Positions 11,108 to 12,970 of a stretch of DNA of 22,984 bases are shown here, piece after piece; position 1 is the first letter of the stretch; each line of letters opens with the position of its first letter. Below the pieces are notes generated by a model. The model saw nothing but the letters and a program-made list of their open reading frames with translations, ran no database searches and had not been told where the DNA came from. Source of the stretch: Candidatus Nanohaloarchaea archaeon. Lineage in GTDB: Archaea; Nanohalarchaeota; Nanosalinia; Nanosalinales; Nanosalinaceae. Both the position numbers and the translations under genes were made by a program. The stretch is taken from assembly GCA_041640075.1 (NCBI GenBank), contig JBEQAY010000016.1:1-22984 (forward strand), given 5' to 3'.

Positions 11108-11167
11108 AGTTGTGGAACCCCACTAAAATACTTCCTTTTTTATTTCTCACTTCTCTTGTCTAATACA

Positions 11168-11923
11168 GTGAAACTGGAAAACTCATTCATTCTGTTCCCA
11201 GGTATCGGGGAAAAAACAGAAAAGAAACTCTGGAAAGATAATATCACCCACTGGGATCATCTTGAGGACTCTTCAAAATACTCTGACAAGATACATGAAC
11301 ACAGGGAGAAAGCCAGGAAAAACCTAGAAGTCGGCAACGAGACCTTCTTCAAGGACAAGATGCCGAACAAAAGCCTCTGGCGAGGCTACGAAAACTTCAG
11401 AGAGAACGTTACATTCTTCGACATCGAAACTACCGGTCTGAAGCCGGAGAGGAACAAGACCACGACAGTAAGTTTCTATCGAAACGGAGAATCTAAGACT
11501 TTGATTAGAGGACAGGACCTGACGAAGGAAAAGCTTGAGCAGGAGTTTTTCGAGTCCTCTATGATGGTGAGCTTCAACGGCAAGAGATTTGACCAGCCTT
11601 TCCTGGAGAAAAGTTTTGACGTCGATATCCAGAACCCTCACATCGACCTGATGTATCTCTGCAAGAGACTTGGCTACTCGGGAGGGCTGAAGAAGATTGA
11701 GAAAGAACTTTCAATCGATCGTGAACTTGAGGATATCGATGGACGTGAAGCGATCCGTCTCTGGAAAAAGTATGAGAACAATGGTGACGAGGAAGCACTC
11801 CGGAAACTTGTGAAGTATAACCAGTACGACGCCGAGAACCTTCAGGACCTTCTTGAAATAGTTAGAGAGAAGCTGATAGACAAGGTCGCTCCTGAGCCCG
11901 AACGGTTCGAACGCAACACTTAA
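11168..11923 (+). CDS. YprB/RNase_H_2-like DEDD exonuclease with N-terminal HhH-like segment
   Basis: PGIGEKTE, FFDIETTG, SFNGKRFD, HIDL, YNQYD motifs. Likely leaderless GTG 11168 (TTTTTA 11137-11142); alternative TTG 11156. Confidence 0.85.
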   Translation: MKLENSFILFPGIGEKTEKKLWKDNITHWDHLEDSSKYSDKIHEHREKARKNLEVGNETFFKDKMPNKSLWRGYENFRENVTFFDIETTGLKPERNKTTTVSFYRNGESKTLIRGQDLTKEKLEQEFFESSMMVSFNGKRFDQPFLEKSFDVDIQNPHIDLMYLCKRLGYSGGLKKIEKELSIDRELEDIDGREAIRLWKKYENNGDEEALRKLVKYNQYDAENLQDLLEIVREKLIDKVAPEPERFERNT

Positions 11924-11943
11924 AAACGTCTCTACCCAAGTTC

Positions 11944-12237
11944 AGCTTGAAAGCAAAACATGGCCTTGCTTAATACGACTTCACCCTCCGGAAACATGTG
12001 GATGGATCTGGTGAGGTGCACCCATACCGAATACAAGGCCAACGACTTCTCCATTATCTACCTGGCAGCTTAAAGCGGGATGAAGTCTTGGCCCAAATTG
12101 GGTCAAGCACCGACCGCGAAAACTCCAAACCAACTGAAAACACAGTTCTTTCATTCTACCTCTATGGAACATGGAATGAAGGAACTTGGGCGGTGCGTCG
12201 CTTGCAAGGTGGCGTACCGTTCTCGGGCTTTTCAACT
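11944..12237 (+). ncRNA. Candidate large structured RNA or long 5' leader of unknown family
   Basis: Six helices visible by eye, several with G-U pairs only on the + strand. TTAAAAA at 11920-11926 is a plausible TATA. The overlapping long ORFs lack the acidic bias of real genes here. Confidence 0.6.
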
Positions 12238-12303
12238 AAACCACGATTACAGACCAGGCGGAAAAACAAGGACCCCCAACCAAACAAGAGGTGTCAACCC
12301 AAA

Positions 12304-12420
12304 ATGGACGCAAACGCGAAGCACTTTGAAACAGAGCTTTTGGCACGTGCAGAAGAAGCAGCCCGTAGAACAGCACAGTTAAGCCCAGAAGCAAACGTTG
12401 TCACAGCAACAGCACTTTAA
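12304..12420 (+). CDS. 38-aa small protein MDANAKHFETELLARAEEAARRTAQLSPEANVVTATAL
   Basis: GAGGTG RBS (12288-12293) at the same 9-10 nt spacing as histone and dnaK; GCA/GAA/ACA codon preference like the histone gene. Confidence 0.65.
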   Translation: MDANAKHFETELLARAEEAARRTAQLSPEANVVTATAL

Positions 12421-12487: not shown

Positions 12488-12970
12488 TCAATCCTGGCTC
12501 TGGTACGCCGCTGACTCGAAAGCAGCCCAGCCATTAGCCATAGAATCCAGTATTGAAGTAAAGGATTTCGCTGGCTTGATAACTTTCCTGCGGCCCTGAG
12601 AGCCTTCCTTCGCATCACGATACTCAAGATACTCGTACTGAATAATACCAAGACGTCTCAACTTCGGTAAAATATTGTTCTTCAGATTTGATTTACCTTT
12701 CTCGTGACCCCATTCATCGAACGCGTTCAGTTTTGTCGAATCGATCTCTCCTTCATCCTTTAACTTTCTAAGGAAAATCTTGGCGTACTTGTTCCTCTTC
12801 GGAGACTGCTCATGAGGAAAGATCAGGTCAACTATCTTCTCCCAGTTCCAGGCTCTCTCACTTTTCTTGAACTTCTGCTCATCTTCAGGAATCGCGATAC
12901 TGTGCTTAGTTACTATTGTCGAGGTTTTCCTCGCGGTCTCATCGACAAAAGGGTGTTTATCTTCCGACAT
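12488..12970 (-). CDS. Uncharacterised 160-aa basic protein, probable winged-helix DNA-binding domain
   Basis: ILPKLRRLGII helix followed by a GRRK wing-like hairpin. TTTTTATA lies ~25 nt upstream (leaderless). Confidence 0.7.
   Translation of the reverse strand: MSEDKHPFVDETARKTSTIVTKHSIAIPEDEQKFKKSERAWNWEKIVDLIFPHEQSPKRNKYAKIFLRKLKDEGEIDSTKLNAFDEWGHEKGKSNLKNNILPKLRRLGIIQYEYLEYRDAKEGSQGRRKVIKPAKSFTSILDSMANGWAAFESAAYQSQD

Follow-up and report, generated by a model that had tools for sequence, protein, structure and literature searches.

Box C/D guide sRNAs combine a kink-turn (k-turn) with a 10- to 21-nt antisense element, and a D or D′ box directly follows the guide. Dual-function RNAs, which both base pair and encode a peptide, include SgrS/SgrT, SR1, AzuCR, and sRNA154 of Methanosarcina mazei; SgrS is described as carrying its ORF at the 5′ end and its pairing region in the middle, whereas the ORF of sRNA154 is leaderless and the RNA masks the glnA2 site (PMC12612679). 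Another M. mazei RNA, sRNA162, has both a cis target and a trans-encoded target mRNA tied to transcription control (PMC3510493). In archaeal mRNA leaders, k-turns that bind L7Ae serve as translational switches (PMC5539422, PMC6298567). From the Nanohaloarchaeota, a 266-nt intergenic RNA, STRG.4577.1, has been reported to be expressed, conserved, and structured (PMC7002113).

We analyzed a window of 22,984 nt, a stretch of contig JBEQAY010000016.1 from a Candidatus Nanohaloarchaea archaeon (GCA_041640075.1). Positions ~11920 to 12420 of this window form a unit that had not been classified before, in which a structured RNA, bearing an antisense guide that co-evolves with its target, is flanked by two small genes. 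The layout is a TATA box, ORF1 (37 codons), a k-turn hairpin, two more hairpins, a ribosome-binding site (RBS), and ORF2 (38 codons). The strongest signal of the region comes from the guide segment, which has evolved in step with the 5′ leader of a gene located at another place in the genome. Our main reading, to which we assign a probability of about 0.62, is that this is a conserved two-ORF unit in which a 17- to 27-nt segment of the central hairpin pairs and co-evolves with the predicted 5′ end of another transcript, and that the RNA probably acts in trans as an antisense repressor of the target's translation.

As in box C/D guide sRNAs, a k-turn is found together with an antisense element; unlike in those RNAs, the k-turn closes its own local hairpin with the guide outside it, a D box follows the guide in 0 of 37 cases, and what the guide targets is the leader of an mRNA. 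Like SgrS and sRNA154, the unit is predicted to carry, on one transcript, a small ORF and a segment that pairs in trans with the RBS region of a target. It differs from the dual-function RNAs, as they are described, in having an ORF on either side of the pairing region, a long duplex with hardly a mismatch, and a k-turn beside the guide; in addition, the matching 5′ tag is found on one of two unlinked genes depending on the lineage, and no Rfam match exists (PMC12612679). Like sRNA162, it would be an archaeal sRNA with a trans-encoded target mRNA tied to transcription control; sRNA162 comes from another lineage and also has a cis target, and the two were compared for homology through Rfam only (PMC3510493). 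The k-turn shares with the archaeal L7Ae switches a GAU bulge, tandem G·A pairs, the rare G:C at −1b:−1n, and location in an mRNA (PMC5539422, PMC6298567). Unlike the switches described there, it lies past a stop codon and ~190 nt from the next RBS, and it therefore cannot cover that RBS directly. STRG.4577.1 is of similar size and from the same phylum, and by size and description, the only features compared, it could be the same molecule; the available description mentions no ORFs, k-turn, or target (PMC7002113). In the literature examined, we met no description of the unit and no RNA that unites a k-turn with two small ORFs and a long guide.

The region had been singled out in a sequence-only reading as a ~290-nt structured RNA with seven helices, all of which are present on the + strand: 11961-11968 with 12034-12041 (8 of 8 pairs Watson-Crick), 11978-11985 with 12010-12017 (7 plus one G-U), 12044-12049 with 12082-12087 (6 of 6), 12088-12095 with 12099-12106 (7 plus one G-U), 12144-12158 with 12172-12186 (13 plus two G-U), 12188-12203 with 12207-12222 (10 plus six G-U), and a closing helix, 11944-11954 with 12227-12237 (8 plus one G-U and two mismatches). 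The closing helix pairs as described and does not covary among homologues (swap z of −0.6, n = 52; the swap test is defined below). The claim of strong structure was borne out, with a folding z score of −4.70 for the + strand of 11930 to 12250 (0 of 100 shuffles equally good) and −1.54 for the − strand; with a rougher shuffle, the stretch scored −5.0 versus −2.2 to +1.1 for 15 other 294-nt segments of the same contig. Compensatory changes in the helices likewise agreed with the proposed selection on RNA structure, and the TATA-like box claimed upstream was located at 11920 to 11926 (+ strand), where we predict the promoter; in 42 of 43 homologues, an aligned TATA-like box lay 27 to 41 nt upstream of the ATG chosen for ORF1. 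The proposed extent had to be revised: the conserved unit goes on to position 12420, and a reading frame makes up its first third. Of the suggestion of a new large noncoding RNA or regulatory leader, the structured RNA stands; it is not purely noncoding, because 11960 to 12073 is a conserved ORF, and it is not a simple leader of a small gene.

A DNA search with the region gave matches in 21 of 41 genomes, its own included. The relatives that carry it are Nanohaloarchaeota, and the sequence conservation spans the TATA box to position 12420. We then searched 401 genomes for ORF2; it was found in 58 of the 70 Nanohaloarchaeota genomes and in none of the 331 genomes of other archaea. With f1 denoting the source genome's own family and f2 to f5 the other Nanohaloarchaeota families, ORF2 was present in the source genome and 43 of 49 other f1 genomes, 6 of 10 f3 genomes, 8 of 8 f4 genomes, and neither the single f2 genome nor the single f5 genome (0 of 1 each). 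In the f4 loci and three f3 loci, the order of TATA box, short ORF with internal hairpin, stop codon, k-turn, spacer, Shine-Dalgarno sequence, and ORF2 is kept, and the unit faces the same convergent gene as in f1; in another two f3 loci, ORF2 is present and the k-turn pattern is missing. Nanohaloarchaeota genomes are ~1 Mb in size, and most of them have kept the unit despite this. The convergent gene (12488 to 12970, − strand) encodes a 160-amino-acid protein that is 73 to 90% identical within the family and has homologues in 96 of the 401 genomes, including distant ones in 35 other archaeal genomes. This syntenic neighbor belongs to no family found by Pfam, NCBIfam, or PDB sequence search (an Atlas search gave PF27297 as a lead), and the element was absent from all 12 convergent-gene loci inspected from outside the phylum. 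Upstream, at 11156 to 11923 (+ strand), lies a gene for a DEDD-type exonuclease (RNase_H_2, PF13482, E value of 3e-41), which holds this position in the f1 loci inspected and in 3 of 5 f3 loci; in the f4 loci inspected, what we take to be a histone-like gene lies directly upstream in its place. The exonuclease is a conserved neighbor and at most a candidate part of the system. One f3 genome (G039; L013 and L153) carries, beside its own f3-type copy, an f1-type copy on a short contig, which is likely bin contamination.

ORF1 (11960 to 12073, + strand) is near-leaderless and under purifying selection. In the first 20 loci aligned, the frame was uninterrupted between the aligned ATG and the aligned stop in every one (20 of 20), and once an in-frame ATG was chosen, 43 of 46 distinct loci had an ORF1 of 35 to 43 codons; of the remaining three, two are truncated by the end of the locus and one (L061) is out of the consensus frame. 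Internal stops occurred in 0 of 54 sequences in the ORF1 frame and in 53 and 54 of 54 in the other two frames. Gap runs were multiples of 3 in 28 of 28 cases within ORF1, versus 6 of 17 past its stop, and pN/pS was 0.33 (33 close pairs). The stop codon itself varies (TAA, TAG, or TGA), and the peptide matches no known family. The exceptional L061 (genome G016) retains the hairpin, k-turn, and guide, and its apparent frame shift is either an assembly error or a true loss. ORF2 (12304 to 12420, + strand) encodes an acidic peptide with a pN/pS of 0.08 (16 pairs), preceded by a Shine-Dalgarno sequence at 12288 to 12293 (+ strand), the GGTG core of which is conserved in homologues. The f3 and f4 versions of the peptide contain a CxxC motif, and no family was found in Pfam, NCBIfam, PDB sequence search, or Atlas. 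ORF1 and ORF2 represent two unannotated small-protein families. At the aligned ORF2 start, 18 of 54 sequences have ATC, ATA, or ATT rather than ATG, which suggests tuned, weak initiation; 16 of these 18 have an in-frame GTG inside the Shine-Dalgarno sequence, and only 2 would need an AUU-type start. A fused or read-through product across the element was considered as well and rejected, as was a fixed-frame ribosome hop, because the spacer lengths spread across all three frames; the ORFs of 140, 100, and 84 amino acids concerned have no Pfam match.

Directly past the ORF1 stop, at 12075 to 12117 (+ strand), lies the k-turn hairpin, with a 4-bp C-helix, a GAU bulge, and tandem G·A pairs. By the standard definition (PMC6298567), it has the C-helix, 3-nt bulge, tandem G·A/A·G pairs, and NC-helix of a k-turn. 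Among 634 alignment cells of this hairpin, 95.9% were paired, compared with 28 to 42% in slid controls, and 9 of its 12 pairs showed compensatory changes. The k-turn pattern is also present in three f3 loci. The −1b:−1n pair was G:C in 54 of 54 f1 and 8 of 8 f4 sequences; this rare pair prevents a k-turn from folding in ions alone, and every k-turn tested folds with L7Ae, according to the same source (PMC6298567). The source genome has an l7ae gene, and we infer from the pattern that L7Ae would bind at this predicted site. Position 3b:3n is mixed, being of the ion-folding type in 18 of 54 f1 sequences and in most f4 sequences, which weakens the case for strict dependence on L7Ae. The strict pattern occurs in only two hairpins in the source genome, the other being near offset 12711 on the − strand of contig C13 (G000:C13). 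The l7ae gene of this genome (L173; G000:C8, upstream of 29871, − strand) has a k-turn-like leader just before its start, as is known from other archaea (PMC5539422).

We examined pairing elsewhere in the element with an alignment-free swap test, in which the pairing of each sequence with itself is compared to its pairing with segments of the other sequences; in f1, 52 of 54 sequences were used, L001 and L016 having been dropped because the anchor failed. The long hairpin at 12188 to 12222 (+ strand), which has a conserved tip, showed the strongest covariation (z of −19.9), followed by the upper hairpin of the k-turn (z of −12.1). The P1/P2 hairpin at 11961 to 12041 (+ strand), which lies inside ORF1 and over its start, gave a z of −6.8 for P1 and −6.7 for P2 (n = 52), and it is kept with different letters in f3 and f4; f4 also has a hairpin that resembles 12188 to 12222. 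An alternative helix between an ORF1 segment and the 5′ arm of the k-turn hairpin (12037 to 12093, + strand) had a z of −5.9 in f1, is partly exclusive with both P1 and the k-turn hairpin, and was not evident by eye in f4 sequences. For a long-range helix joining the 3′ end of ORF1 to the Shine-Dalgarno region of ORF2, z was −5.5 in f1 and, with one sequence per genus, had a median of −3.7 (200 of 200 draws), with one control pair at −2.1; there was no signal in f4 (z of −1.1, n = 8). Two other interactions were rejected, namely, a palindromic kissing-loop dimer at the 12188-12222 tip, the palindrome being broken in several homologues, and pairing in cis of the guide loop with the ORF2 Shine-Dalgarno sequence, which did not covary (z of −0.9).

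The guide occupies the 5′ arm and loop of the hairpin at 12144 to 12186. Its 24 nt at 12149 to 12172 (+ strand) are exactly antisense to the rpoE′ leader on contig C6 (G000:C6:28687-28710), at a site spanning the rpoE′ Shine-Dalgarno sequence; the gene was identified as that for RNA polymerase subunit E′ (Rpo7) by a match to TIGR00448 above the cut-off. When G-U pairs are counted, the run extends to 27 nt, and the next best site in the genome has 16 nt. Among 55 genomes, the element paired better with the rpoE′ start region of its own genome than with swapped ones (z of 10.3), and compensatory substitutions in guide and rpoE′ leader were visible in several genera. Lineages without an rpoE′ match have a different loop; when the complement of that loop was used as a search pattern, it pointed to the leader of a gene of ~80 codons (orf80) located downstream of the gene for aIF2beta (PF01873). 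The orf80 protein belongs to no family above the cut-off.

Of the 39 f1 genomes in which both leaders were available, 20 had a contiguous match of at least 15 nt at rpoE′ only, 16 at orf80 only, and 0 at both; the other three had interrupted runs of 13 to 14 nt at the same place. Five further f1 genomes have one leader, with G056 and G061 matching and the assemblies of G006, G012, and G053 being without orf80. Covariation persisted when swaps were confined to a target class: there were 19.5 Watson-Crick pairs with the genome's own rpoE′ leader and 12.1 with swapped ones (z of 10.0, n = 22, 18 distinct target sequences), and 16.5 versus 10.7 for orf80 (z of 8.7, n = 19, 13 distinct target sequences), z values that are overstated because the genomes are related. 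By an automatic rule, 28 of 37 matches start 23 to 35 nt past the first base of a TATA-like box and so coincide with the predicted transcript start, whether the leader is short or long (22 to 93 nt). In 12 f3 and f4 genomes, no match was found at either the rpoE′ or the orf80 leader, and BLAST of two f3/f4 spacers against six genomes gave chance-level matches only; the guide may therefore be a feature of one family. The orf80 protein is rich in Gln and Met (L313 to L362; G000:C50:432-638 in the source genome), and 61 of the 70 Nanohaloarchaeota genomes have the gene. Tags (e.g., L276, L283, and L200) often hold a tiny upstream frame, of three codons in most orf80 tags and leaderless in many rpoE′ tags, although this is not universal.

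We next considered what the pairing would do to the target. In 15 of 41 targets, the ribosome-binding region lies under the guide; in the other 26, there is no overlap. In these 26, the tag tends, by computation, to be paired with a pyrimidine-rich strand farther downstream; with the tag blocked, the computed cost of opening the RBS region rose from 6.1 to 7.7 kcal/mol (Wilcoxon P = 0.015, with genomes not independent and five tag positions set by hand). By target, the cost rose by more than 1 kcal/mol in 12, fell by more than 1 kcal/mol in 5, and was little changed in 9. In genome G023, a second guide segment reaches the distal Shine-Dalgarno sequence. The computed duplex (mean of −36 kcal/mol) outweighed the cost of opening the guide (mean of 8 kcal/mol) in 24 of 24 cases. 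Of 24 cases in which the guide was forced open, only 4 showed a change of more than 1 kcal/mol at the ORF2 site, 2 in each direction, and a model in which the target triggers ORF2 opening was rejected, as it had no computed effect. A second model, a leader-peptide attenuator in which a ribosome at the ORF1 stop opens the ORF2 site, would fit the covarying pairing over the ORF2 Shine-Dalgarno region in f1 and otherwise gained little support: a footprint there opened the site by more than 1 kcal/mol in 11 of 38 cases, which is not significant (P = 0.23). Given the RBS coverage, the tag-blocking result, and G023, against the small change at the ORF2 site, repression of the target is the best-supported direction.

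Transcription of the element is weakly hinted at by one RNA run, in which two 151-nt contigs with at least 95% identity cover 11933 to 12083 and 12099 to 12235. These contigs show neither strand nor ends, one of them begins upstream of the predicted start site, and elsewhere in the surrounding 2.5 kb there were only distant matches. Two further runs (X2 and X3), probably or possibly of DNA, do not bear on expression; ORF2 was without cover in all of the runs, which is no evidence of absence.

The best reading of these data is that the RNA would be a dual-function, likely L7Ae-bound, trans-acting antisense RNA. A single RNA of ~470 nt would be transcribed from the TATA box and bound by L7Ae at the k-turn, and its guide would invade the first ~20 nt of the target mRNA. 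With a short leader, the guide would cover the RBS directly; with a long one, it would free the pyrimidine-rich strand, which would refold onto the RBS. Ribosomes on ORF1, stopping 1 to 4 nt before the k-turn helix, may couple the RNA fold and ORF2 output to translation activity, a step that has little support because the footprint at the stop did not consistently open the ORF2 site. In the source genome, the outcome would be less RNA polymerase stalk subunit and possibly less Spt4, presumably the product of the gene just downstream of rpoE′. If repression by the guide is correct, a DPANN archaeon would have a regulatory RNA that acts in trans and whose targets, a core RNA polymerase subunit among them, were recognized by covariation. 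The circuit would be one that has switched its target in evolution, with an either-or pattern over dozens of genomes. A wider version, which is conceivable and which we regard as doubtful, is a portable RNA address system. An L7Ae-bound guide would read a ~20-nt 5′ tag that moves between genes (rpoE′ or the 80-amino-acid gene) and so rewires the circuit, and with the two peptides of the same RNA it might throttle an ultra-small symbiont's transcription machinery, for instance, while the cell is between hosts. The natural compensatory guide-target pairs are ready-made controls for reporter tests.

The main rival to repression is that pairing leaves translation unblocked and that the RNA and L7Ae form a guide particle protecting the target 5′ end or marking it for trimming or decay, perhaps with the DEDD exonuclease. 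We consider this unlikely, even though the match keeps to the predicted 5′ end of the transcript and not to the start codon, 26 of 41 tags lie outside the ribosome-binding region, the duplex is long and nearly perfect, and the exonuclease gene is a conserved neighbor. The other 15 guides do cover the ribosome-binding region, long leaders tend in computation to close the RBS region upon binding, and one lineage has extended its guide onto the distal site; moreover, the exonuclease also adjoins f3 elements, for which no target was found. It is more than a little improbable that the direction is reversed, with the target leader as the signal that opens the hairpin and switches translation of ORF2 (or ORF1). 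The alternative helices in the element, the covarying pairing of the ORF1 3′ end with the ORF2 RBS region (median z of −3.7 with one sequence per genus), and the 18 of 54 ORF2 sequences without ATG at the aligned start would fit such a switch; against it are the 4 of 24 cases in which opening the guide shifted the ORF2 site by more than 1 kcal/mol, 2 each way, the control pair at −2.1, and the absence of that pairing in f4 (z of −1.1, n = 8).

Two readings dispense with a trans-acting regulator of mRNA. One, a leader-peptide switch that acts on ORF2 in cis only, with the complementarity a relic of an old inverted duplication, would account for ORF1, the k-turn, and ORF2 (three families) being older than the detectable guide-target match (one family). 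We disfavor it as very improbable, since the two halves of a relic would each decay on their own; here, guide and target have changed in concert at many positions, and the tag of each genome is on one of two unlinked genes, never both. The other, a divergent housekeeping RNA (RNase P, SRP, tmRNA, or a box C/D methylation guide), is suggested by the size, stable fold, k-turn, and antisense segment, and the small hydrophobic residues at the ORF2 C terminus resemble those of a tmRNA tag. It is largely refuted and barely credible. The sequence-only reading had seen no hallmarks of RNase P or SRP RNA, and neither is in the region: the sole RNase P RNA match (RF00373) in the genome is on contig C9, with none in the window, and an SRP RNA (RF01857) above the cut-off is on contig C22. 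Rfam had no match to the region, at the gathering cut-off or at an E value of 10, ARAGORN on the region made no tmRNA or tRNA call, and the genome, which is 89% complete, has no SmpB; a D box followed the guide in 0 of 37 cases. The RNase P RNA (L021; G000:C9:5867-6215) scores 38 bits versus the Rfam cut-off of 84, and standard annotation would therefore miss it.

Paralogues of ORF2 without the RNA are scattered among the genomes (L087 to L098, L116, and L174 to L183). Several of them have a Shine-Dalgarno sequence and an ATC, ATT, or GTG start. They often adjoin genes that we take to be transcription-factor-like (Lrp-like, TFB, or winged helix), and one paralogue each lies before what appear to be a glnA-like gene and an aIF1A-like gene.
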